Assembly (NCBI GenBank): GCA_951406725.2
Contig: OX597828.1
Location: forward strand, 11,780,001-11,844,000
Reading direction: 5' to 3'
Source of the DNA: Octopus vulgaris
Lineage: Eukaryota
DNA length: 64,000 nucleotides
Part shown: in pieces, positions 3,895 through 55,947 of the stretch
How the letters are laid out: every line of letters begins with the position of its first letter
Numbering within the stretch: the first letter of the stretch is position 1
Notes under the pieces: generated by a model
Seen by the model: the letters and a program-made list of their open reading frames with translations, nothing else
Told to the model about the DNA's origin: nothing
Databases searched by the model: none
Program-made: the position numbers and the translations under genes

Positions 3895-5182
3895 ATTTGG
3901 TCATTCCATAAATGATACGGTTTTTTCAATTGCATGAACTAAAAGCCGGAGGGGGACGGGGTAAACTACCTGCATCAACTTGCTATAAAAGCATGTCGTA
4001 ATTTTACCTTCTACTTATTCGTAGTGCAAATTTTGAAGTGTGCAGTTCGATTTTAACAGTTATTTTTCAAAGCTATAATGTAAATGGCAAAGGTTCATAT
4101 TCATCATATTTTGCTTTATGAGTTCAATAAAGGCAACAACGCAACAGAAAGTGCGAGGAATATTAATGCAGTACATGGTGATCGGACAATAAGCGTAAGC
4201 CAGTGTCAACGGTGGTTCCAGAAATTCTGAGCCGGAAACTACAGCCTCGAAGACGAGCCTCGTCCTGGAATATCTGTATAGATTGACAAAGACGTTTTGC
4301 AAACTCTGGTGGAACAAAATCCCATTGTAATTGTCAAGGAACTAACAGAAAAGCTTGGATTTGGTCATTAACCATTCATCGATACCTGCGTGCTATCGGA
4401 AAAGCCAGAAAATTGGGTCAATGTGTTCCTAACAAACTTTCCGTGTCTAATCTCGCGCAGAGAATGAATGTATGCTCTTCTTTGCTGTCACGTCTCATGA
4501 ATGAACCTTTTTCGGACCGAATAGTGACTTGTGATGAGAAATGGGTTCTCTGTAAAAATGTTAAGTACCGAAGTCAGTGGACAGGGAAAGGAGAAACACC
4601 GGTAGCTGAAGCTAAAGAAGGTCTTCACCCACGTAAGGTGTTGTTATCTGTTTGGTGGGATACGAAAGGTTTAATCCACTTTAAACTTTTAAACTCAAAT
4701 CAAAGAAAAACAAGGGAGATCTACTGCGAGTAGCTTGAGCGGGTAAGTCAGCGCTAGAAGAAAAATGACTATCTTTTTCCTTTCAAGACGAAATGTATTC
4801 TTCCATCAGGATAATGCTCGGCCACATACAGCGAAAATGAAATTCCAAAGGCTGGAGTAGTTTGAATGGGAAACGATGCCCCACCCACCATATTCCCGGA
4901 CATTACCCCATCTGATTATCATTTATTCCGTAGTTTTCCAAATCATTTGTACGGAAAAAAAGATGAGTTCTGTAGACGATGTCCGAGCAGTACTGGAGGA
5001 GTATTTTTCGTCAAGGACACATGAATTTTGGAAGAGGGGCCTTGCAAGTCTACCAGATAGATAGAAGAGCATTGTAGAAAATGAAGGAGAGCATATTTTA
5101 AGTTAAAAAAAAGAACTTGTTTATCTTAATTTTGAACAGTAAAAAAAGTATAAAAAAACATTATTTATAGGATAACCCAATA
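3895..5182 (+). mobile_element. Decayed full-length mariner (DD34D) transposon
   Basis: Frameshifted transposase: HILLYEFNKGNNATESARNIN, IVTCDEKW, LLSVWWD, HQDNARPH, PHPPYS; degenerate TIRs (TATT..GTCATTCCATAAAT / TTTATAGGATAACCCAATA). Confidence 0.9.
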
Positions 5183-6122: not shown

Positions 6123-6881
6123 TATTGGGTTGTCTGGAAATTTCGTGCCGATTTTTAAAGAAAAGAAAAAGGCCAATAAATACTTGCCATTACATTTTAA
6201 TGAACTAAATATAAACCATTTTGTTGCACAATGTGTCTCCATCTTTCCTTTAACTTGAAAATACGCTCTTCCCAGAATTGAGGTGGTTTCATCAAGTATC
6301 TTTTTACGTCATCCAAGGAATTGAAATTTTTACCATTAAGACTATTCTGCAGAGACCTGAATAAGTGGAAATTCGAAGGAGCAATAATCTGGTGAATATA
6401 GAGGGTGGGGTATCACATCCCAGCCGAGCTGCAGCAAGTTTTGTCTGGTTCTCAAAGAGACGTGTGGTCTTGCATTATCATGTTGGAAAACAAGACCCTT
6501 CCTGGATGGGCTGCCTGATCGCTCTTTATCAATAAGGCTACAATCTCCAGCTTGGAACCTTGCGAACCACTTCCGTATAGTTCTTTTGGATAAAGAAACA
6601 TCACCTAAACTGCGCATATTTCTTTGGCTGCTTGTGAGGCATGTTTCCATTTACGGAAAAGAAAATCATCAAGTGCCGAAAATGAACTTTCTTATCTTCT
6701 GTTTTAAAAGGTTACAGATTTAACACAGGTTATAGGAACATAAACCTTCTTCCACGAAAAGATAGCTTAAACTGTGTTCTAAATGGAGGTGTAGTCAAAT
6801 CCTATTTTATGGACGTAACTATGTTCTAAAGTCGAAAGGTAAGTTACTATAAATCGGCACAAACTTTCCGGACAACCCAAT
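6123..6881 (-). mobile_element. Internally deleted mariner element
   Basis: TIRs TTGGGTTGTCTGGAAATTTCGTGCCGATTT / AAATCGGCACAAACTTTCCGGACAACCCAA; residual RTIRKWFARF...FQHDNARPH...HPLYSPD. Confidence 0.9.
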
Positions 6882-7559: not shown

Positions 7560-7975
7560 GTTTCTTAATTCTTTACTGCCCACAAGGGGCTAAACACAGA
7601 GGGGACAAACAAGGACAGACAAAGGGATTAAGTCGATTATATCGACCCCAGTGCGTAACTGGTACTTATTTCATCGACCCCGAAAGGATGAAAGGTAAAG
7701 TCGATCTCGGCGGAATTTGAACTCAGAACGTATCGGCAGACGAAATACCTATTTCTTTACTGCCCACAAGGGGCTAAACACAGAAAGGACAAACAAGGAC
7801 AGACAAACGGATTAATTCGATTATATCGACCTCAGTGCGTAACTGGTACTTATTTAATCGTCCCCGAAAGGATGAAAGGCAAAGTTGACCTCGGTGGTAT
7901 TTGAACTCAGAACGTAGCCGCAGACGAAATATCGCTAAGCATTTCGCCCGGCGTGCTAACGTTTCTGCCAGCTTG
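7560..7975 (-). mobile_element. SINE family B tandem dimer
   Basis: Two head-to-tail units joined at GAAATAG/GTATTTCG. Confidence 0.85.
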
Positions 7976-16220: not shown

Positions 16221-16636
16221 GGATCTTTTCGGTTTGCACGGCAGTTTTTTCTAGCGGTGTCATATGAAATTGTCACCCATAATTATGACCCTAGTATCGA
16301 TCTATTGCATTTCAATCTGTTTTAGGGTTAGGGGTGGGGGGAAGGGTATCTTTTTTTCTTCAGAAATGTAAATAAACCCAATCTGTTTCTTAAACGAGGG
16401 ACATATTCATACGGCACAGAATGTTTTCACCTCAATAGACGGTCATTGATTGGTTGGAATTGCAGAAATTGAAGAAAAAAAAACAACAAATATCTTACAA
16501 ACTATAGAATTTTCTCAATAAAGCCAAGAGGAAAAGATGTTTTATAAACACATTCTACCAGTCAGTATACGAAGTTTAAAATTTTTTAGTTACCTAGAAA
16601 TTATGTTAAAAACTGCCGTTCAAACCGAAAAGATCC
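16221..16636. mobile_element. 420-bp MITE with 8-bp TSD AAACACTA
   Basis: About 29-bp TIRs starting GG; TSD at 16213-16220 and 16637-16644. Confidence 0.92.
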
Positions 16637-26869: not shown

Positions 26870-27230
26870 AAGAAGAAGAAAACAAACTATGCTGGATCAC
26901 AGATATAGCATGCCCAGCTGACATGATATGCGATAAGGAAGAAAGAAAAGTCGAGAGAGATGACAGGTTAGCTTGGGAAGTTAAGCAGTTGTGGTGGATG
27001 AAAAAGGTAGCAGCATTACCAATAATTGTCGTAGCCCTGGGAACAGTGAGCAAAAATCTCGAGTAATAGGGGATACAATAAGGGTGGAGCATTTGCAGAA
27101 AACTGCACTTGTTGGAACCGCTCGAATACTCTGGAAGGTGCTCGAAAAATAAGAGGTGTTACCTTAGTTCACTGGTAGTGAACAGCTGACACCGTAGTAC
27201 ATCTCCAGCGTTAGAAGCTGTTCATAGGCA
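26870..27230 (+). mobile_element. R4/Dong-type LINE 3' end (restriction-like endonuclease domain), decayed
   Basis: ITDIACP...KEERKVE...L..EVKQLW...PIIV.ALGTV...LQKTAL.GTARIL; flanked by (AAT)n. Confidence 0.8.
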
Positions 27231-27300
27231 ACAACAATAATAATAATAATAATAATGGTCAAGACGAAGAGCGAGATTCGATTGTAAGATATTTTATTAG

Positions 27301-27343
27301 TTGAACAATATTTCAACAGTAAGTCTGTCTTTGTCAAGTTCAG
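27301..27343 (-). ncRNA. Minimal hammerhead-like motif, U3:A8 variant (left arm)
   Basis: CTGAAC-TTGACAA-AGACAG-ACTTA-CTGTT-GAAA-TA-T-T-GTTCAA. Confidence 0.6.
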
Positions 27344-27608
27344 AATAAGAAGTGATAAAAATTCAAAATTACAGAAATTTAAACGTAAAGTATGAATGAG
27401 AGCAACTAGCGTCCACACGTTGATGGAATGACATCACCAGTTTTTAAGTTACAATTTTATAACAAGCGAATAGAAAAAGAAATAGACAGTTATAAAATTG
27501 TAACTTAAAAACTGATGATGTCATTCCATCAACGTGTGGACTCTTCTTGCTCTCGTTCATACTTTACGTTTAAATTTCTGTAATTTTGATGTTTTATCAC
27601 TTCTTATT

Positions 27609-27651
27609 TTGAACTTGACAAAGACAAACTTACTGCTGAAATATCGTTCAA
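27609..27651 (+). ncRNA. Minimal hammerhead-like motif, U3:A8 variant (right arm)
   Basis: TTGAAC-TTGACAA-AG...CT-GAAA-TA-T-C-GTTCAA; 6-bp stem I. Confidence 0.6.
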
Positions 27652-27735
27652 CTAATAAAATATCTTACAATCGACTCGCGCTCTTCGTCTTGACTGTTTA
27701 CCTTTGTGAAGAGTTACGTCAATCCTTTTTTTTAA

Positions 27736-27814
<79 letters not shown>

Positions 27815-27815: not shown

Positions 27816-28550
27816 GTGATGGTGATGAAGCTGACAAACACAAAAAAGGGGTCATAGTACCTAACAACTATGAAGAAAAAGAAGAAACAACAAAAACTTT
27901 AAAACAACTGAAAACCCCTCTCACCACAAAAAAAAACTGGAACAGCAACGGATCATGCAAAAACGATGGCAAAAATGTCCCTTCATGGCATACATTGGGT
28001 TAAAATAAACAGAAAAAACATAGACAGACAAAATTCCAGCAATGGCTGAGAAGCTCAGGACTGTAAGGAGAGACTGAATGATTTTAAATTGCAGCACAAT
28101 ATCAAAGCCTTTCCATTAGAAGTCACCAAAAACGCGTAACCAAAAGAAATACCAATAACTACAGAATATGTGGAGATGGAGAAAAAACAAAAAATCATAT
28201 TGTCTCTGGCTGCCCAGTCCTGGCTAAGAAGGAATATATTTACAGACATGACAGAGTTGAGACCTACATACACTGGAAGCTACACCAATACTAAGGAATA
28301 ACAACAGAAAATAGATGGTATCAACACACGTCAGAAAAGGTCACAGAAAACAAGAAAGCAACCATACTCTGGCCTATATACATACAAGTAGAGAAATTAA
28401 GGGCATTAGGACGGATATAGTTGTCAGAGATCACCAAGAAAAGATGCTTTCTAATCGATGTATCAATACCAACAGATGGTCATGTTTCTCTAAAAGAAAC
28501 GGAGAAACTTTTAAAATACAAATATCTGAAAATAAAGGTAACTCGAATAA
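27815..28550 (+). mobile_element. Decayed R4/Dong-type LINE fragment (Zn knuckle/RLE region)
   Basis: Frameshifted QWLRSSGL.GETE..IAAQ.Q...RICG...HI.SGCPVLAKKEYIYRHDRV..YIHWKL; follows (AAT)n. Confidence 0.78.
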
Positions 28551-28804: not shown

Positions 28805-29527
28805 GATTTCAAATTTTTGCCACAAGGGCAGATTTGAGAAGGGGATTAAGTCGATTACATGGACCCCAGTGCGTAACTGTCAATAATTTTATCGACTCCG
28901 AAAGGCAAACTCGATCTTGGCGGAATTTGAACTCAGAACGTAACGGCTAACGAAATACCTATTTTTTTACTGCCCACAAGGGGCTAAAAACAGAGAGGAC
29001 AAACAAGGACAGATAACCGGATTAAGTTGATTATATCGACCCCAGTGCATAACTGGTACTTATTTAATCGACCCCGAAAGGATGAAAGGCAAAGTCGACC
29101 GCGGCGGAATTTGAACTCAGAACGTAGCGGCAGACGAAATACCATGTGTCGATCCGTTTATTGAAGATGGCAGACTATGATTTAAAGGACATTTTGTTGC
29201 TATATGCAACAGGTCGAGATTCAGTGTAGAGGCTCTCTTGTAGCTTTCTATGATAGTAATAAAACCATTAAGTAACATACATTCCATAAATAATTATTCC
29301 TTTACTACCCACAAGGGGCTAAACACAGAGGGGACACACAAGGACAGACAAACGGATTAGGTCGATTACATCGACCCCAGTGCGTAACTAGTACTTATTT
29401 AATCGACTCCGAAAGGATGAAAGGCAACGTCAACCTCGGCGGAATTTGAACTCAGTTCGTAGCGGCAGACGAAATACCAGTAAACATTTCGCCCGGTGTG
29501 CTAGCGATTCTGCCAGCTCGCTGCCTA
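28805..29527 (-). mobile_element. SINE family B array including a transduced 150-bp flank
   Basis: Three units; 29144-29525 matches 14740-15115. Confidence 0.85.
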
Positions 29528-29699: not shown

Positions 29700-29830
29700 A
29701 ATAAAAAGAATTCCAACCTTGTCTGATTTTCACGTTTTATTTACAATCTTATAATGATATATTATAAGATAATATATTATAATTGAATAAAATAAAATGA
29801 AATAGTAGAATGTTAAATATTCATTCTGAT

Positions 29831-29875
29831 TGAACTAGTACTTTCATGCATTGAATTCTGCAATCTTCGGGTTCA
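29831..29875 (-). ncRNA. PLE minimal hammerhead motif (left arm, sense to the ITIH pre-mRNA)
   Basis: Mirror image of 31653-31697. Confidence 0.65.
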
Positions 29876-30380
29876 TGTAGTAGTGTTGACAGTCATGCTT
29901 CGCAATTTTTGACTGTAGCAAGATGAGTGATTCTGTGCTATAAATACAGCTGGGTAGGCTCCAGAGTGCTAGGTTTTGCAAACTGTATTCTGACCAATCA
30001 GTGTGTAGTATCACTCAATTACTTAAGCTGATTGGTTGGTTGAGCTGATTGGTTTAGGCATCATGCTTTGTTGGACAGGTCAAGAGTCCTGTATCTTGAC
30101 CCTGGCCGAAGCAGCAATTGTTGGGTTATTTTTAGAAATGTTGTAAATATCCTTTGTCAGAGATTTTTATATTTTTATATTTCAATTGTCATCATCATCA
30201 TTGTCAGCACCTTAATTATTGTTGCTAGTGGTGATGGTGGTGGCAATAGAACTTTTAACCCTAAATAAGATAATTTTCCTGCTATCTTCGTCTTGATCAC
30301 CTTTAGTATTGTTGTTGTTGTTAGTGGTCATGGTCGTAGCAGTGGAAGTAATACCTCTAAGTATTATTATTATTGCTTAT

Positions 30381-30755
30381 TTAGCTTGGGTTCGAATTTA
30401 TCAATAAAATTCTTTCTCTGATTTTCCTCTCGATTTCACTTGGGCTGTGTAATTTGTAGAATGGAAATATTATATATATTTTCCGACCACATGTTGCTAG
30501 GTGGTTACTTAAAGGTATCTGACGGACCTCTGGGTCTCTAATCTGTTGCCGGTGTACACGTGAGCGTTCTAATAATGCGTTTCCCGTCTGACCTACATAT
30601 ATTTCTTCACAATTTGGGCATTTGATGCAGTAAATTAAATTTCTGCTTTTGCAGTTCATATTCGCGTTTGTGAATATTTTTCCGGTTTTTGTGTTTATAT
30701 ATTGACCGGTATGTATGAATTGGCATGTGCCACATCGGCTATCATTGCATTTAGA
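30381..30755 (-). pseudogene. Inverted copy of the PLE GIY-YIG endonuclease with a 1-nt deletion near the C-terminus
   Basis: Same protein as the + copy until KIRE, then frameshifted. Confidence 0.85.
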
Positions 30756-30771
30756 TACAGTGAATGTTTGG

Positions 30772-31158
30772 TCTAAATGCAATGATAGCCGATGTGGCAC
30801 ATGCCAATTCATACATACCGGTCAATATATAAACACAAAAACCGGGAAAATATTCACAAACGCGAATATGAACTGCAAAAGCAGAAATTTAATTTACTGC
30901 ATCAAATGCCCAAATTGTGAAGAAATATATGTAGGTCAGACGGGAAACGCACTATTAGAACGCTCACGTGTACACCGGCAACAGATTAGAGACCCAGAGG
31001 TCCGTCAGATACCTTTGAGTAACCACCTAGCAACATGTGGTCGGAAAATATATATAATATTTCCATTCTACAAATTACACAGCCCAAGTGAAATCGAGAG
31101 GAAAATCAGAGAAAAGAATTTTATTGATAAATTCGAACCCAAGCTAAATAAGCAATAA
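30772..31158 (+). pseudogene. 5'-truncated PLE ORF: Cys Zn-finger linker plus GIY-YIG endonuclease
   Basis: KCNDSRCGTC...NCKSRNLIYCIKCPNCEEIYVGQTG...ERSRVH...HL...RE..FI..FEPKLN; the ATG at 30715 comes from the opposite arm. Confidence 0.9.
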
Positions 31159-31652
31159 TAATAATACTTAGAGGTATTACTTCCACTGCTACGACCATGA
31201 CCACTAACAACAACAACAATACTAAAGGTGATCAAGACGAAGATAGCAGGAAAATTATCTTATTTAGGGTTAAAAGTTCTATTGCCACCACCATCACCAC
31301 TAGCAACAATAATTAAGGTGCTGACAATGATGATGATGACAATTGAAATATAAAAATATAAAAATCTCTGACAAAGGATATTTACAACATTTCTAAAAAT
31401 AACCCAACAATTGTTGCTTCGGCCAGGGTCAAGATACAGGACTCTTGACCTGTCCAACAAAGCATGATGCCTAAACCAATCAGCTCAACCAACCAATCAG
31501 CTTAAGTAATTGAGTGATACTACACACTGATTGGTCAGAATACAGTTTGCAAAACCTAGCACTCTGGAGCCTACCCAGCTGTATTTATAGCACAGAATCA
31601 CTCATCTTGCTACAGTCAAAAATTGCGAAGCATGACTGTCAACACTACTACA

Positions 31653-31697
31653 TGAACCCGAAGATTGCAGAATTCAATGCATGAAAGTACTAGTTCA
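31653..31697 (+). ncRNA. PLE minimal type-I hammerhead motif (U4C)
   Basis: TGAAC-CCGAAGA-T-TGCA-GAATTCAA-TGCA-T-GAAA-GTAC-T-A-GTTCA; palindromic stem III; in the PLE 3' UTR. Confidence 0.65.
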
Positions 31698-32187
31698 ATC
31701 AGAATGAATATTTAACATTCTACTATTTCATTTTATTTTATTCAATTATAATATATTATCTTATAATATATCATTATAAGATTGTAAATAAAACGTGAAA
31801 ATCAGACAAGGTTGGAATTCTTTTTATTAATATATTCTTCTATACACAATCACACACACCCATATATATATATATCTATATATATATATATATATATATA
31901 TACACTCACATATACAACCACACAAATACGCACACATACACACAAACACACACACATAGGGAGGTAGATAGAAAATGTGTCACCTGAAGGCGATGATGCA
32001 TTATAAAAGATAAGATTCTTGCACAAATCAAGTAAGAATGAGCGAGATCACTTTTTTGACTGAAACACAAAAAAAAAAAAAAAAAACTAAAAATAACTCT
32101 TTTTAGAAATAGTAAAATAATGGACAGTTGTTCTTCATATTTTTCTCCAAAGATTCGTGAATCCTATTAAATGTTCATGATAAAAAT

Positions 32188-38506: not shown

Positions 38507-38577
38507 GCATGTAGCATAATTGTAGATAGGGCAGATTCAATTCATTTCTCCGAAGACTGAAAAAAAATTATGAACAA

Positions 38578-38619
38578 GCTTAATCGATTTTCGAACCTTA
38601 TTGGTTTCTCATCAGAGGC
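38578..38619 (-). ncRNA. Minimal hammerhead-like motif, canonical core
   Basis: GCCT-CTGATGA-GAAACC-AATAA-GGTTC-GAAA-ATCGAT-T-A-AGC; palindromic stem III; weak stem I. Confidence 0.6.
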
Positions 38620-38874
38620 GTCCACAGTATTATGACAGTCTGCTGAGAAACAAGCAGTCACATTCTTTCTATACTCAAGAAATGCAGCAGTTACTCTATG
38701 AAGGGGTCGCTAATTTCCATACTGAAAGAGTTTAACACGCTGTAAATGCCAGCGGCCTGTCAACGGGAATCTTAGTCCACACAGTATCAAGGCATGATAT
38801 AATAAATTTGTAACATATGGCATAATAATAAACAAAGCAAATTTAAGCCATTCCTCCTCAGACTGAAGGAATGC

Positions 38875-38964: not shown

Positions 38965-39030
38965 ATGTATATATAAAGTGAAAAGAGGAAGAAGAGAGAA
39001 TGAGAAAAACTAATATATGTACACACAAAA

Positions 39031-39091
<61 letters not shown>

Positions 39092-39155
39092 TTTGTGTGT
39101 ACATATATTTAAGTTTTCTCATTCTCTCTTCTTCCTCTTTTCACTTTATATATAT
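38965..39155. repeat. Short palindrome folded around a (TA)n core
   Basis: AAAGTGAAAAGAGGAAGAAGAGAGAATGAGAAAA and its exact reverse complement flank the (TA)n. Confidence 0.85.
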
Positions 39156-39927: not shown

Positions 39928-40097
39928 ATGTATGTATGTATGTATGTATGTATATGTGTGTGTGTACAGATCTGTGTATGTTTACATAAGTGTGTATGTG
40001 TGCATACAGTGCGAGAAATCAATATAATACAATTTTAATATTTTTTTTAGAAATAGATAATCATGTTTCAATAGTAACAAAATTGTAACTGTGATAC

Positions 40098-40442
40098 CTT
40101 CAAAGAAAGTTCTATTGCTCGCTGTTTCAATTCTTCTTTTTCCTCTTCCGTAGTTGCTGCTATTCTCTTGTCTAAAAGTTGCTTAATCGTTAGGTAGGCC
40201 CACAGTTTTTCGGGAATACCCTTGATGTCTTCGTCTTTTAGCAGACCAATTCCTTCGCCTACCGCCGATGGATCGTACAGTTCTGTTTCATCGGTATGAT
40301 CGATTGCTCCTGCATTTGTACTTCCAACAAGATTCCACCTGAGTGTTGATATTGAGTCATCATTTAGACGACCAGCAATTACAGATTCTGTTCCCTTGAA
40401 GTAACGACGGAACTGGCTGGTGGTCAGTGAGTCGTTCTCAAC
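40098..40442 (-). CDS. ITIH: ITIH-like exon (VENDSLTTSQFRRYFKGTESVIAGRL...EKLWAYLTIKQLL...AIELSLK)
   Basis: cttcag acceptor, gtatca donor, phase 0-0; F..YF.G.E.V.AG and E.LWAYLTI.QLL motifs. Confidence 0.96.
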
Positions 40443-40449
40443 CTGAAGT

Positions 40450-40736
<287 letters not shown>

Positions 40737-41109
40737 CATAAGAAGATCTTGTTCAACATTTTCTTTTTGTGTTAGGCACACGAGATGTCGAAATATCGTT
40801 CACTTGATAACAATGGCAATCTTCTTTTTTTTTTGTTAATAATAATAATATTATTATTATTATCTCTCTCTATATAAACAGCAGTTTGTCTGTGCGTGTT
40901 TCTGTGTGTCTGTTTGGTAGGCTTTCAACCGATTCTGATGAAACTTGACACACACATAGAAAACTAACGCAGCAAAACTTTGAAAAGTTCCCCCAGTTCT
41001 GAAAAATCGTCACATACACATGTCTGGGAAATATCGTTCACTTGATAACAATGGCAATCTTTTTTTTTTTTTTGTTAATAATAATAATATTATCATTATT
41101 ATTTCATAT

Positions 41110-42420
41110 ACGCACCACAGATTTGACTGTTGGAAAAGAGAAGTTCCCAACATAGGCTTACAACAAGTAAACTTAGATGCTAATAATCATCCTAAGCATT
41201 CTAGCTGTCCATTGTAACATTGATATCTGGAGCTGCACTAAACTCGGTTTTATTCTTAATTCCTCTATCCATCAGTTCAAATCTTTAGGGATAGTTCCTA
41301 ATGCACCTATAACTACAGGGATGCATTTTATCCGCACTTTCCATAGTCTCTGTAATTCAATGGTTAGGCCTTAGTACGTTGCTATTTTCTCTATCCATCT
41401 CATATTGACTTTCTCATCATTTCGGAATGTAAAGTCAGTAATCAGTGGATTACTCTCTTCAAGATGTCATTTTTTTCTTGTATTCTTTGTATGCCAGCTT
41501 GCTACATTCACTTGCTATATGAATAACACTTTCCACTTTGATTTTCATAATCTACATTCAGAATCTGACTGCTCTTGTCTATCTTGCGTTTTATCCAATT
41601 AGTCCTCAATGCTTCATATTGTGCTGATACTAGGAAACTTACTGTCTCCCATTTCAACCTTCCTTTCTGCAAACATACCCTCGTCTTACTATCACTGTTT
41701 CCTGCAACTAACTTTGGTAATCTACTATGAACATCCTTTTCTGCCAGTTAGGTAATCTTACTTCTTTTTCTTGTTCTCAACTTCAATTGCCTTTTTGTTT
41801 CCCTATGTCCTGCTGTGACTCTAGCAGTTCTCAATAAACTTTCTCCATTTTTACCTACATAGGAAGCTATACCTACTCTAGCAAATTCCACGCAGTCTTC
41901 TACTGATATCAACTCGCTTCTAGTTTCCTTTATAGGTAAGTATAATCCGGCTATTTCCGCTCTTGAGTGGAGTCCTCCATTCATATTGAACTTCTTCCTA
42001 GTTTTTTCTCTGTAGCTCTACTAATTCAGATTTTTCTAGCTACAAAATCTGCTGAATATAAAAGTAACGATACTACCCGAGTATTTACAGTTTTCACTAG
42101 ATTCGAACTATTGAGGTTTGACTCCATTAGCTTCCTCAACCTTCTGATGTACTTCTTTCCAATTTTCGTTTTAATTTCTATAGTGACATTCTAATACGCC
42201 TAGATCATTATAACTCTTTCTTTCAGTGATTTTATTGTCTTGCTTTCTGGTAATTGGATGCTTTCATCGCTAGTACTTGTCCTTTTTATCGTGACTAATA
42301 TTCCACACTTATCTATGCCAAATTCCATGCCTCTATCTTTTCTGAAGAATCTTACTCTTTATATTTAGGAATCTTTTTTATACTTACTAAAAAACTTCAG
42401 ATCATCCATGTAGAACAAAT
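41110..42420 (-). mobile_element. Decayed R4/Dong-type LINE fragment (RT to RLE)
   Basis: LFYMDDLK remnant near 42400; MNGGLHSRAEIAGLYLP...LISVED; PVVIGALGT...RML near 41200-41320. Confidence 0.8.
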
Positions 42421-42874
42421 ATATAATATAATATGTATATAATATAATAATAATATCGTTATTATTATAAGCATTAACCATTTCTTAAAGCAGTAGGCTA
42501 GCACCAATGGAGTATAAACACAGTCAGGAGTGTGTCAGAAAAAGGGTGCATTTGGGTGCTAGGCTTCTGAAATTCTAACACATGGTCGGATCAATACGTG
42601 TCACCAAAAATCTAAAGGAAATACATTTATGTTAGGAAATAAACATTTGCTCAATGTTTTTTCTCCTCCTTGCTGGTGCAATGTCAAACAATTCCGACTT
42701 CACAACTGTTACCAGCTTAACTCCCACCGGACAATTGTGAAAATAAGCCTTCTGTGATGTCCATATATATATACATGAGGTTCTTTTTGCTTCTATATTT
42801 GCTACATATAGCCTACTTATGACATCCAGATTACCACAGCAAAAGAACTTATTTATTTTAGACTTAGTTTCGAG

Positions 42875-42918
<44 letters not shown>

Positions 42919-43056
42919 CTATGGAGAGAGAGAGAGGGGGGAAATTATATATCATATGTACATACATATATTATATTCATACCTGCATATATACATGACA
43001 TACGTATGTATATGTATGCGTATATATACACATACATATATATTGTATATATATAC

Positions 43057-43113
<57 letters not shown>

Positions 43114-44259
43114 CATATACACATTTTTTCTACATGTCATATATATTGCAAATATTTATATCATGTATATAATAAATATATTATATATGCTGTAGATAAT
43201 CGTATGTATGTATTCATACATGAACAGATACATACGTACATGTATGTACAAAGTAATATATATATATATATTTACATATTGACGAGATATATTCATTTAA
43301 ATGTAAGTATATCTATCTATCTATCAATATATATATATTATGTTACAAGTATATATATATATATATTCATATAGATATATAGATATGTACGTATGTATAT
43401 CTATATGTTTATGTATATGTATGCATGTATACATCAACACACACACATACACACATGCATGTACGCGTACACACAACTACACACATACGTCTCGTCATAA
43501 CTCTGTTCTCAAAGGGATATTTATAAGAACCGAAATTCTATCATAATATTAATGTGGAATTGTGTATGTAGTTAGCTATGCATACAACATAGCCATAATA
43601 TTAAGATACATAAGAAACTGATTTATGTCGTTACACATCACTAGTATATTTTATTAATATTGTACTCCATGCATATCAGCTGTAATAGAAATACGATCAT
43701 AACTAGATGCTCTATGTATATGCCCAAGTAAAAATTATAGGAATTTTGATGCAAACACTAAAACACTAGCAAATTATTTCTGCATATTTAGGTGAAAATA
43801 AATGGAAATAGGATATACAAGCAAATGAAAACCGAAAGTAATAAAGTTTGTTTTTAATAAATTTGCATAATTCAATAAACAGATATTATCTAAAAAAAAC
43901 TGTGAGCACTAACATATACTCTCGCTCATATTCATCTATCCATTGATTCATATATGTATGTGTTTGTATGTCTGCGTGTGTGTGCGTATAGGTGTACATA
44001 TATGTATGTATAGTCTATATATATATATATATAATATGTATGTATATATATATATATGAATGAATGATTATATATACTTATATACATAGATACATACATA
44101 TATATATACACGCGTATATACATATACATATGTGCTTGTTTATATATACATACATGTTTGTCTAGAAATATATGCATATGCATATAAATATATATACGGG
44201 TACGTATACACACACATAAGCACACGCACATATATACGTATGCATGTGTGTATAGTCTG

Positions 44260-44323
<64 letters not shown>

Positions 44324-44467
44324 ATTCACTATGGTGTGCGGCCTAGAATTTTGCCTCGAAACTGGATTTATATTATACATATATATTATTAGATAGATAG
44401 ATATTCATAGATATCCCAACACACACAGCACAGGCACACACAGATACACACACACACACATACACAC

Positions 44468-44511
<44 letters not shown>

Positions 44512-44552
44512 GTATATATATATATATATATGCGTATATATACACATATATA

Positions 44553-44617
<65 letters not shown>

Positions 44618-45356
44618 ATAATAGCGCAAGCAAAAGAGAAGCTACTAGAAATAGAATCAAATTTCCTTCATCTCATACAAAACATTTTAAAAGGGATAAA
44701 CAGAATATAGTGTGTATATTTCTTTAATGCCCACAGAGGGCTAAACACAGAGGGGACAACATCGACCGCGTAGTCCTACAAAAATGTCTGTCTGAAAAAA
44801 TAGTGACAGCCACGTTTAGAGTGTGCTTAGTTAAAAAGCATGCTTGCCCATGGCTGACCTGGAGCTAAACAACAATATAGCAATGTAGGTATTAAATATT
44901 TATTGATTTTTGTCGTTTGACCTAGCGTTTAATCTGCCCTATTCTGGGCTCATCCGATTTTTTTGATGAGACAGTTGTGAGCTGTCCAAATGTCTTATCA
45001 TTCATTCTGAAACTAGTGATCTATTACCGTTAGTTGATTTGAAAATAATTTGATTATTACTGAGAGTAATCCGCCAATTGGAAGTGAGATTTGAATTCAA
45101 TATGCAAAAACGAGAAGAGAAACTTTAAGTTAACTCCACAAAGACCCTAACAATTCCAGTAATCCAACGCCTTGGACTTGTAATTTATTTTAACAAACTT
45201 GAAAATATGAAAGGCAAAAGTTGCCTCGGGGGAATATGATCTTGAACAAGTACGCCACAGAAGAATAGAAAGGACTACTGTGCTTAATTAGTAGGTAGTT
45301 CTACTAAAACATAAGTTCTAGTGACTGTTAAAAAGCTGTTTAAAAAATGGCCTTAC

Positions 45357-45724
45357 CTTGTCTCCGAAATAGTCGAATTGCAGATTCGTCATCAATGCAG
45401 CCGATATTTCATTATAAAAGTTCTTTAACTGGATTACAGTATCAGAGGCCTCGTAAATTCGTCGAGCAACAGCGAAATTTCGCAGAGAAATCTTCTGGAG
45501 CAGAGTAAAGTCAGCATCCGCTCCAAACGACAAAGAAAATACTGGAATTTCATCATTATTATTTTCACCTACGTTGGTTAATATATTGTTGCTGTTGGTT
45601 TCACCAGCTGAGGCAGCCCCGTCCGTTAAAAATATAATCAATGGTGAACGTCCGTCCCGCTTGGAGAGTTGGAATTTATGAAGTAATTTTAAGCCGTCGA
45701 CAAGAGCCTTGTTTATATTTGTAG
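45357..45724 (-). CDS. ITIH: ITIH-like vWA exon 2 (STNINKAL...IIFLTDG...FSLSFG.DADF.LL.K.SL.N...ARRIYE...QL.NFY.EI)
   Basis: aaacag acceptor, gtaagg donor, phase 1-0; carries the MIDAS T and D. Confidence 0.97.
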
Positions 45725-45759
45725 CTGTTTAATTTGAAAAACAAAATACAATTTAATTT

Positions 45760-45985
45760 AGAAAGGCAGGAGGATGGTATTTAGGCAATGTATTACATAT
45801 CCTAGTGATCCAATAATTACAGGCATAAACCTGAACTTGTAGAATGGATAGAGTTGTTGTAGATTCCTCAAAGGTTCAGCGTAGCTATTTTCTTTTTCGC
45901 AGATCTTTAGCTTTGTGTTAACAGCCGCTAGGCAACTGAATTCCACAAACGGTACACAGTTACTCTTCTCTATTCCAAATCACTA
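45760..45985 (-). mobile_element. RLE-type LINE 3' fragment
   Basis: EKENSYAEPLRNLQQLYP...PVIIGSLGYV. Confidence 0.65.
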
Positions 45986-46019
45986 TGTCTGATATAGTAC
46001 GCTTACATGCAGGAGATTC

Positions 46020-46550
46020 TACAGTAATGCGCCGGTTTCAACATTTGCTCACCAAAAGAACGGAAATAAATTTAAAAGCTAAACTCGCTATCATCAATTC
46101 TGTGTTCGTACCTAACTTTCCTTATGGCCAGAAATCTTCGGGAATAACCGAAAGAGTACGATTTAAGTGATGTGGCTTCTTCGAAAGGTGCTTTGGAATA
46201 ATGTTACTCATTAGAGCGCGTAACTCGGAGATCAGAGAGATGCTCCAGATTGACTCTACTTCTCCGAATTGAGAGATAACAACTCTGATACTATGAACAT
46301 GTGGTAAGAACATATCGGGAAAGAATCGCTAGATAGGTTTTACGTACAAAACCAACCGACAGGGGACCTAGAGACAGACTGCGACCGAGATGATTGGATT
46401 ACTACATCCATGAGCTCGATTGGTCTTGATTTGGAATGCAGCCAGATCAAGTGGAAACTTTTGCTTTTGAGAAGACCTGCTCGAAGACTCTCTTGAGAAT
46501 TCTGCTCCCATTGACCCTCCCATTAAGTAGATGAAGGAGATGAGAGGAGG
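46020..46550 (+). mobile_element. Highly decayed RTE-type LINE fragment
   Basis: AKLAIINSVFVP...YG remnant, followed by a degenerate GR.R..W segment. Confidence 0.55.
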
Positions 46551-46838
46551 AAAATACAATTAACTTAACAATATTTATTTAAAATACGTTTTTGTCTAAC
46601 ATAGACAAAGAGAGTTTAAAAGACTAAATTTTCTTTTTATCACAGGGGATAGAGCATGATTTAACTTAGTTGCAAACTTGCAAATAAATATTCACTGAAA
46701 CACCGAATTGCAATTTAAGAACAAATTATAGATATATACGAGGTGGTATCAAAACGTTTCCAGACTAGTTCTGTAGAGCACCAACAATTGGTAATGCACA
46801 GTTGCGAGCGCAATGAGATATAGATGTAAGCTTCATGA

Positions 46839-47147
46839 GTTGTTGTTGTTTGTTCCTTCTCGAGCTTCGCCTGACTCATAAGGGCCGGTTTCCCGGTTTC
46901 CTTGGCGTATAGATTCCCCACCTGAACGGGACGCCGGTCCGTCGCAGTTCAGCTGCAAGATGCAGGAGGAAAGAGTGTGAGAAAGTTGTGGCGAAAGAGT
47001 CAGCAGAAGTTCGCCATTACTTTCTGCCGGAGCCGCGTGGAGATTGGGTGTTTCGCTCATAAACATATACATCACCCGGTCTGAGATTCGAACCCGTGAT
47101 CCCTCAACCGCGAGTCCGCTGCTCTAACCACTGGGCCATGTGCCTCC
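46839..47147 (-). mobile_element. SINE family C
   Basis: Homologous to 8861-9160. Confidence 0.88.
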
Positions 47148-47383
47148 ATGAGAAAATATGCCGAGTGAAATTTGTGGGGTTTTTTTTGTGATCACGTGTA
47201 TGCTTATGCTGTTGTCTGCATTTTTGTCATGTACAGGGAGCTGGAACAAAAGACCAAGATGGAATTTTGTGTTAAACTTGGGAGGTCTGCGGCAGAGACA
47301 TTGAGCATTCTTCAGCAAGCTTACGGTGATGAAGTAAGAAAATATGGAGAAAATTCATCAGCTTGTGCATGAGGATCGCCTCT

Positions 47384-47800
47384 TTGCTCTTTTACTTGTT
47401 TCAGTCATTTGACTGTGTCTATGCTGGAGCACCGCCTTTGGTCAAGCAAATCAACTCCAGGACTTATTCTTTGTATGCCTAGTACTTATCCTATCGGTAT
47501 CTTTTGCCGAACCGCTAAGTTACGGGGACGTAAACACACCAGCATCGGTTGTCAAGCGATGTTGGGGGAACACACACAGACACACAAACACACACACACA
47601 CACACACATACATACATATATATATATATATATACATATATATACGACGGGCTTCTTTCAGTTTCCGTCTAACAAATCCACTCACAAGGCTTTTGTTGGC
47701 CCGAGGCCATAGTAGAAGACACTTGCCCAAGGTACCACGCAGTGGGAGTGAACCCGAAATCATGTGTTTGGTAAGCAAGCTACTTACTACATAGCCACTT
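47384..47800 (-). mobile_element. SINE family A
   Basis: Homologous to 788-1192. Confidence 0.85.
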
Positions 47801-48600
47801 CTACGTTTGAGGACAATCAACATTTTGAAGCATTTGAGAGAGGACATTCGGTGAAAGCGACCAGAGTATGGAGCGCTAAGAATTGGATTCTTCACGACCA
47901 CAATGCACTCGAGCTCGCCTCACTCTTGAGTTGCTCGCCAAAAACAACATGACACCGCTTCTGCATCCGCTCCAATCGTCAGATTTAGCACCTGCGCACT
48001 TCCATCTCTTCCCCAATATATAAATGCAGCTCAAAGGTTGTCCAGATTGAGGGCAAATCGCAGTAGGTCCTCGACTCGCTTACAGAAAACGACTTCTATG
48101 CCTGATTCCCTGATTCTAAAAGTTCCAGGAAAGCTGGGACAGGTGTATTGCTGCGCAAGGTGACCATTGCGAAGGAGATGATTTTAAAACTTAGGTAAAT
48201 AAGTTATATTTTATTAAACATAATTAGTTTGGGAACCTTTTGATGCCACCTCATAAATGATATGTTTTGCAATAATATAAAAAAAAAACATGAATTATAT
48301 GTAAATATTCTTTCATATGTTCTCTCAGTCACAAGGAAAATAAATCGCATAATAATAGAGCAAAAACAAAAAAAGAAACAAATAAAGCCTGAACGGTTCT
48401 CTCCTCTTAAGGGAAGTTCCTCCCTGCAGTTTCTTAGAAAACTCTCTTTCTCTCCGTCTCTTACTCTGAACCCGACCGTTGATGGTAGCGCCATCAGTCG
48501 CCAGTTAAATTTCACACGCGCGCATCAAATATATTACTTAAGGTTTTCTTGTGCTTTAATCACAACCAAAATACTACTTAATTTTTACGATCAATATATA

Positions 48601-48637
<37 letters not shown>

Positions 48638-48679
48638 CATACATACATACATACATACATACATACATACATACATACA

Positions 48680-48711
<32 letters not shown>

Positions 48712-48715
48712 ATTA

Positions 48716-48888
48716 AATAATGAAGGAAGAAATTGATATTAATCAATTAAAACCAGTGGCTTAGTATATTTTTTTTAAAAAATGATTAAAAATTATATCA
48801 CATACAAAACTTTTAATCTTCGGATTTTTTAAATATGCTAAGCCACTCGTTTTAATTGATTAATATCTATTTCTACCCTAATTATTTA
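48716..48888. repeat. Fold-back element, ~45-55-bp imperfect inverted arms, next to (TACA)n
   Basis: GATATTAATCAATTAAAACCAGTGGCTTAG / CTAAGCCACTCGTTTTAATTGATTAATATC. Confidence 0.75.
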
Positions 48889-49088
48889 AGTTTTAAATAA
48901 CTATGTTCTCTAACCGGTAAATTAGCTGCACAAACGTATTAACTGCAAAGTTATTTCTGGACTCATCGCGCCATAATGAAGACAGTTGTAAAATACCCCC
49001 AAATATAAGTTGCAGAACTTTATACATACTCTCTTTCGGGTGACCGTTCTGTGTCTAGTTCTGGAAACTTTGTTTTATAAGCGACAGA

Positions 49089-49152
49089 CTACGCTGATGA
49101 GCTTGCAGATATTTACATTCATAAATATTAAGCGAAAACCATTGGAACGTAG
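49089..49152 (+). ncRNA. Type-I hammerhead-like motif, canonical core, mutated cleavage site
   Basis: CTACG-CTGATGA-GCTTG...ATATTTA/TAAATAT...TAAGC-GAAA-ACCATTGG-AA-CGTAG. Confidence 0.6.
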
Positions 49153-49367
49153 GTAATCGATTTTTACTTCGTATATTTTTATTTGTTTTGCTCATTTTTA
49201 CATTCTGGCTTTTTGCTGAATTACTTCTTGAGAGCACACTCTTCGTGGTAAAGCGATTCGACGTCTATCTTTAGCATATTAGGAGTCCACTTTGGTTGTC
49301 ATTCCTCTTTATTTTGTATGTTAGTTCCTACACACATTTTTTTCTCTCCTTGTTTTTTTTCTGTGTA

Positions 49368-49405
49368 TCTTTCTGTCGAAGAGCGTAGGCTCGAAACGTA
49401 AAAGA
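49368..49405 (+). ncRNA. Minimal hammerhead-like motif with atypical core, in a (TA)n-linked element (49330-49502)
   Basis: TCTTT-CTGTCGAA-GAGC-GTAG-GCTC-GAAA-CG-T-A-AAAGA. Confidence 0.55.
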
Positions 49406-49500
49406 CTTGTTCTATTTCTATTCCTGAGCGCTGTACTAATACAATTGTTTGTTTGTACTCCACCTGCCTTCGTCTTTTGTTTATTTTCGTAAACCTTCGC

Positions 49501-49601
<101 letters not shown>

Positions 49602-51007
49602 CTAAGATGTGTATTTTGTCTCTCGTTTTACTCCCTCTACAAAATTGCAGCCAATCAGTATCAAACAAATTTTGCACCGTTTCAGCAACTTATATATCAA
49701 ATGAATTTATAACATGCAGATATTTTAACTGGAATGTGTTCTATCTGGTGTCTTTAAACATTAACATCACAAAAACGAAACTGTTCTCTGGCAAAACGAG
49801 TTTTTATAGCTATGGCAATTTTCTTTGTTTTTTTTTTAAAGTCATTCTCAATGTAAGTTTTATGTCCCTTCCTCTCACTAGAATATAAAAGGAATTTATT
49901 TTAACTTTTAACATCCCAAGTAAGTATCTCAGAAAATTCTTAAAAGTTTAAATATTTCAATTCTGTTTATCACACAGCAATTACTTTTTCTTTCTTCTGT
50001 TTTCGTGAACATCACGACCTCTCACCTTTGTTTTTGTTACAAACTTTCTCCTTGTTTCTCACAGGTCACCTTGCGATGATTTGAAATATTTTTAGAAATA
50101 GTGCCGTTAACATAATCAGGCTTTTATTTCTTCTCTCATTCAACATTCTTAAATGGTTAATTATTCATTTATACTGGGCAAATGTGAATTTTCACATGTG
50201 CAAGCATCTGAAAGTTTGTACCTGTGTAGAATTTATTACTTTATCCTTAGATGTAAAAAGTTGGTAACATTCTTCTAAACATAGGTTACATATTTTTAGT
50301 TCCAGTTCTGTATGATTTTGCAGTACAAATTAATTCCCAATTGATAGTATTGTCTTCGTTTCTGTCTTTAATATACCAGATTAATTTACTAATATGCATA
50401 CATACACACCCACACTCACACACACACACGCACACACACACACATATATATATGTATATATATATATATGCATGTATGTATGTATTATGTATTTATATAC
50501 AAATAATAACAAAAAATTGACGCGTATCCATTGTTTGTTATTTATTTATTCATAATACACCTCACTGGATCCCGACCCATCGGATATTCTGGAGCACGAC
50601 TACTATAATGTACACTTCTGAATTAGTCCTTAAGCTACAAAAACACTCATAATGTTTAGATTCCCTATATACATAACATGAACATTACACTGGATGTACT
50701 TCTGTACCCATGATATTTACTCGACTAAAGGTGCTGTTTACAACTTAATTCGACCTAACCTGGTGCCTATCATTTACTTACCTGAATCCTTTTGAATCCT
50801 TAGTATTGTGTGTGTGTGTGCATATGAGTGTGTATATGTATAGATATATATATATATATTATATACATATTAGAGGAAATCCACTATGTGGACACCCTTA
50901 TGCTAGAAATAGATCCGCTATGTTCTTACCACTAAGAAATATTCTCAAGAAAATCGATGTTAATTAAATTAATATCTAATTTCTCACCGTCATTTTAAAT
51001 TTAAATT

Positions 51008-51053
<46 letters not shown>

Positions 51054-51106
51054 TAAACTGGCAAAATGACCATTCCTAAATACAAAAATATATGCATGTG
51101 TATGTT

Positions 51107-51169
<63 letters not shown>

Positions 51170-51257
51170 AATAATAATAATAGGGAGTATAACTCCAAAC
51201 TTACAGAGAAACATTCAATTTAGTATTAAATCAAATTTCACAATATATATATATATA

Positions 51258-51456
51258 TAAATTAGAGAAAAACCACTATTATGTAATTCAAACAATGATA
51301 GACGTAAATCATATCTTATAGAAAAAATAAAATATATGATAAAACATTTTCCTAGATCACAATAAAGTACATAATAATAAATAATAAATAATAAATAATA
51401 ACTAGTTATTTACGTCTATCATTGTTTGATTTACATAATGGTGGTTTTTCTCTAAG

Positions 51457-51460
<4 letters not shown>
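51258..51460. mobile_element. MITE-like fold-back element with ~52-bp arms, inserted in (TA)n
   Basis: TTAGAGAAAAACCACTATTATGTAATTCAAACAATGATAGACGTAAAT and its near-exact reverse complement. Confidence 0.75.
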
Positions 51461-51492
<32 letters not shown>

Positions 51493-51501
51493 ATTACTTA
51501 C

Positions 51502-51787
51502 AGCCCGAAGCGTCTCGATTGTATATCCATTTCAAAGCGTCCGCTTTGTTCTTTTCCTCCCATGGCACCATGTCTTGTTTCCAAAATTTTATGCTACCGT
51601 CAAAGTCCATAATGTTAAAACGGTCTCCTTCGGCCATGTCATTAACAATCTGATCCATGGCACTTTTCACTTGAGTAATCTTGCGTCCATACATCGATCC
51701 ACTTGTGTCTATTATGAAGAGAACGTCTTTGGGAATTGGATCCAAATCAGTTGGCGCGAAGAAATGAACAAAGTAACCATTTACTGC
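51502..51787 (-). CDS. ITIH: ITIH-like vWA exon 1 (AVNGYFVHFFAP..L..IPKDVLFIIDTSGSMYGRKI.Q...DRFNI..F)
   Basis: ttttacag acceptor, gtaagt donor, phase 0-1; NGYFVHFFAP motif and DxSxS MIDAS. Confidence 0.98.
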
Positions 51788-51904
51788 CTGTAAAATGAAG
51801 AAAAAAACGTTTACTTTGATGCTATTGGTATTTAGTAATTCCTGAAAAATATTAACGGTTCACATTGCTTGGCATATAATATTAATCATTTATTAATTGA
51901 GAAT

Positions 51905-52052
51905 AACCCACATTGCACAACCCGAGAATTGGCAGAAAGCCTTAACCTATCAAAATACGTGGTTCATGAGCACCTGGTAAAGCTTGGGTAATGGCAAGTA
52001 TTTATTGACCTTTTTCTTTCCTTTAAAAATTGGCAAGAACTTTCCGGACGAC

Positions 52053-52057
<5 letters not shown>
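51905..52057 (+). mobile_element. Mariner 3' fragment (family of 24895-25459)
   Basis: Ends in TIR GAACTTTCCGGACGACCCAA. Confidence 0.85.
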
Positions 52058-52108
<51 letters not shown>

Positions 52109-52144
52109 CACATACAAATAGATATAAATATATGTACATATATA

Positions 52145-53125
<981 letters not shown>

Positions 53126-53164
53126 CATATATATATATTATATATACATACATACATACATACA

Positions 53165-53215
<51 letters not shown>

Positions 53216-54204
53216 GCATATACATATTTACAAACACACACACACACATATATAACTCAGTACAGCTTTTGCATATCTACATACATGCGCATATATGTAT
53301 TTATATGTATGTGTGTGTGTAGGGTGTATGGGTGGGTGTATATGCATGTACTCGACCTTGATTTTATGTTGCTTGTTTGTTTGAAGCTGTAAGCCGGTGT
53401 CGAGTGACATTGTTTTAGATCAAAGCCGTAAATTATCTTCTATCTTCTACATGTTCCAGTCATTAGACTATGGCCATGCTGGGGCACCACCTTGTCTCTG
53501 ATTCAGAAAAAAAAATTGGTACGATAAGGTAGCAACTGGAAGTATACCGAGACAGATACGACCGTTTAAAACTCTTAAATGCAATACCCTATCATGGCCG
53601 TATTCCAATGACTGAAACCAGTAAGAAAGTAAAACACATTGTTTCGTTTAATGCTTTTTGTTTTTATTTTCATTTTTGCAAAACTATAATAATGTATAAT
53701 ATTTCATAGTGAACAAAAATACATTTTAGTGGCGTATCAATTACGAGATTGCTTCGCGTATATCACGCTTTGTTATATGCATCGAGACGTTGTATTATAT
53801 CTAGCATGACGATATGTTGAATCTGTATCGATCTAAATGCTATTTGATCTTAAGTAGGCTATTGTGTTTTAGGCAATGGAGCATTATATGGTTTCTGTTG
53901 TGACGCTATGTTCAATCTAATGAGGCATAGTTTTGTATCTGTTAGAATAATCTGGCCTTCTCTGTTTTAAATTTATTTTCTCCAAACGTTTATTTTACAT
54001 CATATCAGAGAATCTCAGCTGGTTTATTCGATTATATTCGATTATATGTTGGATCTACTACTACCAAAATCGCCACCACCATGCAACACCGTAACGAATA
54101 GTATAACTACCTCCGCCACTACGTCTAGCTGAATAGTGTTATTGAATTTTTTAAATAATTAAGAATGGAGAGGTCAAGATCGAGTCATTCAGGAGTATTT
54201 TATA

Positions 54205-54545
54205 GTTGAGGGGAAGTTAATTACATCAGATGAAGTACTCAACAGCTACATATTTTATCGACCTCAAAAAGGATGAAAAGCAAAGTCGACCTGGACAGAA
54301 TTTGAACTCAGAATGTCAAGATGGATGAAATGTTGCGAAGCATTCTGTGCGGCGTGCTAACGATTCTGCTGGCTCGCCACCTTTTTGAAATAATTTCTGA
54401 TTAAGACACGAAGCGTAAAATTTTGAGAGGAAGCTTGTCAATTGTATTGACTTCAATATTTAACTGGTAATTTGATTTATCGATCCCGTAGAATGGAAAG
54501 CAAAAGTCGACAACGGTAGGATTTCAACAGTGAACATAATTAGCC
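54205..54545 (-). mobile_element. Diverged SINE family B units
   Basis: GGATGAAAAGCAAAGTCGACC...TTTGAACTCAG. Confidence 0.7.
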
Positions 54546-54550
54546 GTAAC

Positions 54551-55743: not shown

Positions 55744-55947
55744 CTAAACAGATAAATACGATATTGAAGCAGGAATCACAGAAAATATTGCAATGTTCGA
55801 TGGATTAATTAATTCCTTTGGTTCGTTTATTTTTTTACTATTATCTTATTACCGCCAGCAAACTGAAAAATGAACTAGTTTGAATGTCATATAAACGTAT
55901 TGTATAAATATCTGTGTAACTCACACCTACGACTCTGCCTTTCTACA

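Follow-up and report, generated by a model that had tools for sequence, protein, structure and literature searches.

The window analysed here is a 64,000-nucleotide (64-kb) stretch of the Octopus vulgaris genome (GCA_951406725.2, contig OX597828.1, positions 11,780,001 to 11,844,000 of the forward strand), and all coordinates below count from its first base. Comparing the window with itself reveals a single 437-bp fold-back at 27258-27694, which is set between two (AAT)n microsatellites, has decayed LINE fragments on both flanks, and lies 2 kb from a much larger palindrome. The features that bear on its interpretation are as follows.

16221-16636 and 59218-59637: members of a MITE family; length about 416-420 bp, terminal repeats 29 bp, target duplications 8 bp (2 copies examined)
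26881-27235, + strand: 3' end of a LINE with restriction-like endonuclease, decayed (tblastn over 26881-27057, E 3e-6 to 7e-4)
27236-27257, + strand: left microsatellite, (AAT)7 at 27236-27256 followed by one G
27258-27463, - strand: left arm, 206 bp, read as an inverted element end without tail
27301-27343, - strand: left minimal type I hammerhead motif, U3:A8 core 27337-27331, U17 at 27307
27448-27463, - strand: imperfect palindrome of 16 nt, inner (5') end of left arm
27464-27488, no strand given: spacer, 25 nt
27489-27694, + strand: right arm, 206 bp, read as a copy of the same element end
27489-27504, + strand: the same 16-nt imperfect palindrome at the inner end of the right arm
27609-27651, + strand: right minimal type I hammerhead motif, U3:A8 core 27615-27621, extra A 27622, helix II 27623-27637
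27695-27737, + strand: one-sided tail, 39-43 nt, with a terminal T8 run
27738-27814, + strand: right microsatellite, about (AAT)25, with (AAT)25 at 27740-27814
27928-28549, + strand: second decayed LINE fragment of the same type, with zf-RVT knuckle and endonuclease motifs (E 1e-62)
29700-31861, no strand given: large fold-back with a GIY-YIG domain in (TA)n, read from its protein as a PLE remnant; arms of about 1056 bp, 16-nt spacer
About 29700-30755 and 30772-31828: arms of the large palindrome
31658 (+) and 29870 (-): hammerhead-like motifs of the large palindrome, one per arm

A tailed palindrome between AAT microsatellites

The arms of the small palindrome align without gaps and differ at 13 of their 206 positions, by six transitions and seven transversions. 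Two of these differences are CpG-type decay in the left arm, including a change from C17 to U17 in its hammerhead. The arms would have diverged after insertion, through point mutation. The 25-nt spacer has no self-complementarity and, by analogy with the spacer of the neighbouring palindrome, probably represents the additional 5' sequence by which one copy exceeds the other. The tail extends the right side only. It is 43 nt long, or 39 nt if its last four bases are counted as microsatellite, and would be native element sequence. It can pair with the last bases of the arm, in a fold that is not significant (z -0.97). The first-pass annotation of this DNA had described 206-bp arms, a 25-nt spacer and a right-only extension of 43 nt, and this anatomy holds throughout, with 39 nt under the other choice of boundary. 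At its inner end each arm has an imperfect palindrome that forms a 7-bp stem, equalled by 1257 of 55,886 background windows. Outside the arms, the flanking direct match is 2 bp only, which is at chance level (1 in 16). A transcript across the palindrome is predicted to fold back at about -299 kcal/mol.

The left arm adjoins (AAT)7 after a single G, and this (AAT)7 doubles as the 3' tail of the upstream LINE fragment. Twelve bases across the left junction, made up of the microsatellite end and the first two bases of the arm, are the same as the last 12 bases of the right microsatellite. Further, GGT follows 2 of the 25 (AAT) runs in the window, both of them at the small palindrome. The 12-base repeat is suggestive of a staggered cut with target duplication and 2-nt microhomology. 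The flanking LINE fragments presumably belong to a Dong/R4-like clade, judging by the zf-RVT knuckle and restriction-like endonuclease motifs they contain. In all, the window has three decayed restriction-endonuclease LINE fragments (26881-27235, 27928-28549 and 41176-42175), each adjoining (AAT)n. Dong elements are described as targeting TAA microsatellites, including one in a snail (PMC3812793). Other elements, too, have (AAT)n as their tail or target, and the small palindrome occupies a single site, so that a preference of its own cannot be shown. An earlier claim that the two palindromes have different microsatellite targets stands for the flanks, (AAT)n against (TA)n; the word target is an extrapolation from one site.

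Hammerhead motifs in the two arms

Each arm carries one hammerhead motif that reads outward, that is, in sense toward the 3' end of the element, as judged from sequence and structure. Its parts follow in the order helix I, U3:A8 core, extra A, a 15-nt helix II domain, a GAAA box, a 4-nt palindromic helix III and a NUH site. The cores, at 27615 (+) and 27337 (-), are 278 bp apart on opposite strands, which bears out the initial description of one outward U3:A8 hammerhead per arm. Both arms thereby possess the traits of the minimal PLE type, namely a 3:8 pair, an extra base after position 9, a palindromic helix III and NUH.

Neither hammerhead is intact, and the damage is divided between the arms. 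The left motif has an intact 5-bp helix II closed by G-U and a palindromic 4-nt helix III; its helix I consists of 5 bp and a C-A mismatch. The right motif has retained C17 and the sixth pair of helix I, which is thus 6 bp long with a distal extension (27604-27608/27654-27658), and cleavage is predicted after C17 at 27645; its helix II contains two A-C mismatches. The U17 of the left arm need not inactivate the ribozyme, since U17 is frequent among published PLE hammerhead rows. Both arms have G10.1-U11.1 in place of the consensus G-C, a variant present in several of the published rows.

In Fig. S3 of the supplement of PMC4209133, the consensus is U-rich upstream and AU-rich downstream, carries one additional base after 9 and has a helix III that is palindromic. 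The hammerhead of the small element fits the accompanying alignment position by position, except for the G-U at the base of helix II. Among the aligned rows, U3:A8 occurs in S. mansoni 3 and 4, the G-U closing pair in Lottia 1 and 2 and in Latimeria 1, and the same helix III bases in Latimeria 1 and 2 and in Nematostella 1; the three mollusc rows are without U3:A8. The U3:A8 covariation is natural and is reported to be active in vitro (PMC3088659). Cercyon of S. mansoni (Cervera and de la Pena 2014), as described there, shares U3-A8, the extra base after 9, a 4-nt palindromic helix III and U/AU-rich flanks. Relative to the metazoan PLE hammerheads presented in these sources, the small palindrome differs in its 5-6-bp helix I with a 5-bp distal extension, and in the G-U at 10.1-11.1.

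This external comparison, within the alignment as published, is a stronger test than our own descriptor. Because the descriptor was written after the motifs had been seen, and the two arms are not independent, its controls are optimistic: with a helix I of at least 5 bp it gives four matches in the window, two per palindrome, against a mean of 0.11 and a maximum of 1 in dinucleotide-shuffled windows (n=100; 11 had one), while shuffles of the 274-nt unit gave a match in 68 of 20,000, and a relaxed form (helix I of at least 2 bp) gives nine matches in the window. Unconstrained folding of the left-arm region recovers hammerhead helices I and II at -9.6 kcal/mol, a result equalled or bettered by 6 of 200 shuffles. 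The right-arm fold is no better than shuffles, 40 of 200 being as good.

Rfam covariance models gave no match at gathering score in the window and called no hammerhead. The 16 sub-threshold matches at the small palindrome are of generic hairpin, snoRNA and lncRNA types, none of them a hammerhead. Reading the locus as a miRNA precursor was rejected, the sub-threshold miRNA matches (down to E 1e-14) standing among these generic hairpin-type matches. Also rejected as a hammerhead was a CTGATGA at 27512, which has no second core box downstream and falls where the left arm differs. Elsewhere in the window, two hammerhead-like motifs with canonical cores, both probably decayed, are located at 38560-38625 (-), which the relaxed descriptor accepted on a 2-bp helix I, and at 49085-49150 (+), which was seen by eye only.

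As a ribozyme, the small palindrome is probably inert. Each transcript would contain one sense hammerhead, buried in a 206-bp fold-back, and a hammerhead of this minimal type is thought to require a partner copy (PMC4209133), with which it would complete helix III. An active dimer was absent from minimum-energy co-folding in all three pairings.

Coding content, further copies and the neighbouring palindrome

The small palindrome was initially called non-coding, and we agree. A 73-aa open frame (27519-27737) has no homologue, Pfam family or Atlas match; the remaining frames are interrupted by stops, and a short frame across the spacer has 14 codons. Searching with 18 PLE proteins (tblastn) found nothing at the palindrome, and no PLE-type RT or GIY-YIG was found in the 480 bp of palindrome and tail, as expected of a 5'-truncated copy.

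No second copy was found in the window, either by self-comparison (the next matches are 12-18 nt, E 0.23 or worse) or with an RNA model, which recovered just the two arms (next match E 0.83). A 16-nt pattern, too short for the purpose, was sought in 16 of 64 parts of GTDB and occurs in an estimated 490 or so stretches; among the 120 loci compared, the best scored 41.7 bits (25 nt at 96% plus 35 nt at 89%). All of these matches are centred on the seed and were rejected as chance. Plasmids and phages did not match the unit. A 12-nt piece of the ribozyme was not found in the supplement of PMC8557442, a weak result given that long sequence runs there are cut or wrapped. A literature search of titles and abstract starts returned no paper pointing to an (AAT)n-targeting PLE or to the small element itself; it left out Repbase, Dfam and most subscription papers, and so is not evidence that the family is undescribed.

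Three short resemblances within the window were also set aside. A 12-15-nt match between the arm end and positions 30285/31229 of the large palindrome is in the opposite sense (E 2.9). A 13-nt match of the ribozyme's 3' half at 40790 and 41028 was picked post hoc and is unsupported by the RNA model (E 9.2), with 10 of 500 shuffles matching. Similarity to the MITE family of the window is limited to short matches at chance level (reached by 356 of 500 shuffles).

The rest of the window is rich in repeats. The MITE family has a duplication length like that of hAT elements and short (CCCTAA)n runs, with more partial copies near 12.3 kb and 54.6 kb. Within 40735-41110, a stretch of about 70 bp occurs twice (about 40790 and 41028). 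It opens with 13 nt that match the 3' half of the hammerhead in the small palindrome exactly and closes, at the tail of another Dong-like LINE end (41176-41460, -), with a T run and (AAT)n/(ATT)n. The sequence between these copies looks Helitron-like. Other inverted-repeat elements occur at 52147-53000, 51262-51455, 38976-39146 and 48713-48889, several of them embedded in (TA)n. There are remnants of Mariner-type transposases at 4287-4733 (judged from translation) and 6345-6650 (Mos1 HTH, E 9e-6), and abundant SINE-like repeats (7569-7931, 28900-29520 and others) with tandem units of about 184 bp and dispersed copies, which may resemble octopus SINEs. The interval 40068-57550 (-) contains exon-like frames of a vWA-domain gene, with vWA matches in two of three frames, presumably resembling an inter-alpha-trypsin inhibitor heavy chain. 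A search for further exons below 40 kb found no ITIH-type domain in 65 frames (63 of the 94 passing the filter, plus two added).

The large palindrome is a young insertion in (TA)n. It encodes a GIY-YIG domain (Pfam E 1.2e-6), and its protein has 18 relatives at 44-66% identity, many of them with both RT and GIY-YIG and the named ones including oyster and mussel, in keeping with a molluscan host. On this protein evidence we class it as a PLE remnant. A CX2-5CxxC linker precedes the C-terminal endonuclease, a mark of the Neptune and Nematis clades. Its tail, on the right only, is 33 nt long and AC-rich. Read on the tail-less copy, the spacer translates as QTFTVSKC, which relatives match with sequences such as KQFTVSKC. 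It follows that this spacer is element sequence left by unequal 5' truncation, and not the centre of a MITE. The hammerhead-like motif has a C3:G8 core, C4 in both arms and a 6-nt helix III; its fold is no better than shuffles (108 of 200), and there is no inner hairpin.

The two palindromes have no sequence similarity beyond chance (50 and 75 shuffles, of 500 each, attain the local score). In both, each arm bears a hammerhead-like motif that reads outward, with a 5-bp helix I common to the two; both also have a short spacer, a right-only tail and microsatellite flanks. They differ in that the large one has a (TA)n flank, C3:G8, C4, a 6-nt helix III, a coding remnant and about 14-fold less arm divergence. 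The first reading, that the small palindrome repeats the layout of the GIY-YIG palindrome and is unrelated to it in sequence, therefore survives, save for the shared helix I. So does the claim that it is the more diverged: 13 of 206 positions differ, against 5 mismatches in 1063 paired columns plus one gap column, 1064 columns in all (Fisher p=1.6e-7).

Origin and significance

We interpret the small palindrome, with a probability of roughly 80%, as an inverted and tailed PLE pseudo-LTR, formed by two 5'-truncated, hammerhead-bearing ends joined head to head in (AAT)n. It is a real feature and a fresh example of an insertion class whose layout is already described in print, in the passages of the sources cited below. 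PLE insertions are reported to carry an inverted, 5'-truncated copy at the 5' end and a tail of 30-40 bp, often at one end only, and their microsatellite bias hides target duplications (PMC8557442). Another study documents PLE pLTRs that measure 181-218 bp, a tail of 31 bp and palindromic sequence where the inverted copies meet (PMC3846280), and paired minimal hammerheads on opposite strands, 100-700 bp apart, are likewise reported (PMC4209133). At our locus an inverted 5'-truncated copy is joined head to head, its orientation read from the hammerheads, and the tail is on one end at 39-43 nt, the upper figure slightly above the quoted range. Compared with the inverted pLTR/tail insertions of EN+ PLEs (Pen2a_Av of Adineta vaga, Penelope-13_HM and the scheme of Craig et al. 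2021), as there presented, it has the same head-to-head 5'-truncated copy, a unit of about 200 bp, the one-end tail, a short junction palindrome and hammerheads on both strands; it differs in having no ORF or direct pLTR and no clean, unique target duplication. The tables of PMC8557442 that give targets for Naiad, Chlamys and Hydra families do not list (AAT)n. Since neither another copy nor a linked ORF was found in the window, in the GTDB loci compared or among plasmids and phages, PLE membership is judged from anatomy. The insertion is probably dead.

The rival that survives best, itself distinctly improbable, is a non-autonomous, retrozyme-like unit of about 270-300 nt, mobilised by PLE protein in trans and present as an inverted pair or a fixed fold-back unit. 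With spacer and tail the unit is 274 nt (27464-27737), within the 170-400-nt range given for retrozymes, and no coding sequence was found at the palindrome. Animal retrozymes are, moreover, argued to be non-autonomous PLE derivatives (bioRxiv 10.64898/2026.07.22.740005). Retrozymes are described as head-to-tail tandems with canonical type I hammerheads, the minimal ones being assigned to PLEs, whereas our element is head to head and minimal with a one-sided tail, and no tandem repeat was found there. The likeness to non-LTR retrozymes thus lies in the non-coding sequence, the type I hammerhead and a similar unit length, and the difference in their head-to-tail arrays with canonical hammerheads as against an inverted, minimal, tailed arrangement.

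It is very unlikely that the palindrome is a MITE or Foldback DNA transposon, whose long terminal inverted repeats would bear a hammerhead-like motif by chance. Long inverted arms, the lack of an ORF and the 2-bp direct match flanking the arms would suit such an element, but a 2-bp match is expected one time in 16, and the true MITEs of the window have 29-bp terminal repeats and 8-bp duplications. This explanation also needs a separate 43-nt unique insert inside the microsatellite of the empty site, and leaves the ribozyme pattern unexplained. The first-pass preference for an inverted PLE pseudo-LTR over a MITE is accordingly supported by the hammerhead pattern, the layout, the PLE neighbour and a 2-bp flank match set against the 8-bp duplications of the MITEs.

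We give as little credence to an origin from the flanking Dong-like LINEs, or from microsatellite break repair, in which fold-back would have duplicated a captured fragment. LINE fragments of this kind do lie on both flanks. Given the TAA targeting of Dong elements (PMC3812793), the (AAT)n may owe its presence to them. The unit is nevertheless dissimilar to the left LINE end (a similarity score that 377 of 500 shuffles also attain), five LINE proteins have no match in the palindrome, and R2-type elements have been described with HDV-like ribozymes. In addition, the 5' inversions of LINEs would invert upstream sequence without duplicating the same end. An assembly or library fold-back artefact is scarcely credible: palindromes adjoining microsatellites are prone to chimeric reads, but the arms would then be identical, and here they differ at 13 of 206 positions, CpG-type changes included, without indels.

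For an inverted PLE pseudo-LTR, a mechanism can be sketched from the anole Poseidon protein. In vitro, both strands are cut and extended, ATT is a favoured cut, reverse transcription starts at two internal sites that delimit the tail, and the hammerhead is dispensable for insertion (PMC11167929, as far as cited here). By extension, a GIY-YIG/RT ribonucleoprotein would cut both strands of an AT-rich target. Each target 3' end would then prime a cDNA, beginning at one or the other of two start sites that lie about 40 nt apart; one copy would thereby be tailed and the other tail-less. Both cDNAs would stop early, near the small inner-end hairpin, and be joined there, the 25 extra bases of the longer copy remaining as the spacer. 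Two-sided priming of this kind would, as a single event, explain why the ribozymes point outward, why only one side has a tail and where the spacer comes from. Self-primed fold-back (Arkhipova et al.) may be an alternative route, for which the one-sided tail would need a further step.

The element would share with Poseidon_Ac (PAc) of Anolis carolinensis (Frangieh et al. 2024), in the features described there, a tail delimited by two RT start sites, an ATT motif and an upstream hammerhead. PAc differs in that its ORF starts inside the hammerhead, its tail is coding and its core is C3:G8; the small unit has no ATG after the hammerhead. As to clade, Penelope/Poseidon would agree with the minimal hammerhead and the ATT-type target, and Neptune with the microsatellite bias. 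The first seven tail bases match the opposite flank poorly in the small palindrome, and at 6 of 7 positions to (TA)n in the large one. Pairing of the tail start with the target at the junction is not supported by the portion of PMC11167929 considered, because priming in the anole data proceeds without target homology.

As a single decayed insertion, the small palindrome matters little. Its annotation value is that short PLE fold-backs resemble MITEs or miRNA precursors and escape Rfam. If transcribed, it would yield a long double-stranded RNA. PMC8557442 lists among its open questions how the inverted repeats, the tail and the microsatellite bias of PLEs come about, and with a family of such short insertions, junction statistics could separate two-sided priming from self-primed fold-back.

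We speculate further, and regard it as unlikely, that the palindrome represents a PLE family absent from the papers searched, with specific (AAT)n targeting and a U3:A8 minimal hammerhead, in which the tail-less end arises where the cut microsatellite anneals to the RNA at the tail start, and a dimeric enzyme makes the two cDNAs from two RNAs. At its boldest, this reading would have the short fold-back move as a non-autonomous unit. An (AAT)n target, if confirmed, would lengthen the target list of the tables in PMC8557442. If the (AAT)n-family reading is true, both palindromes would be natural snapshots of two-sided target-primed reverse transcription.
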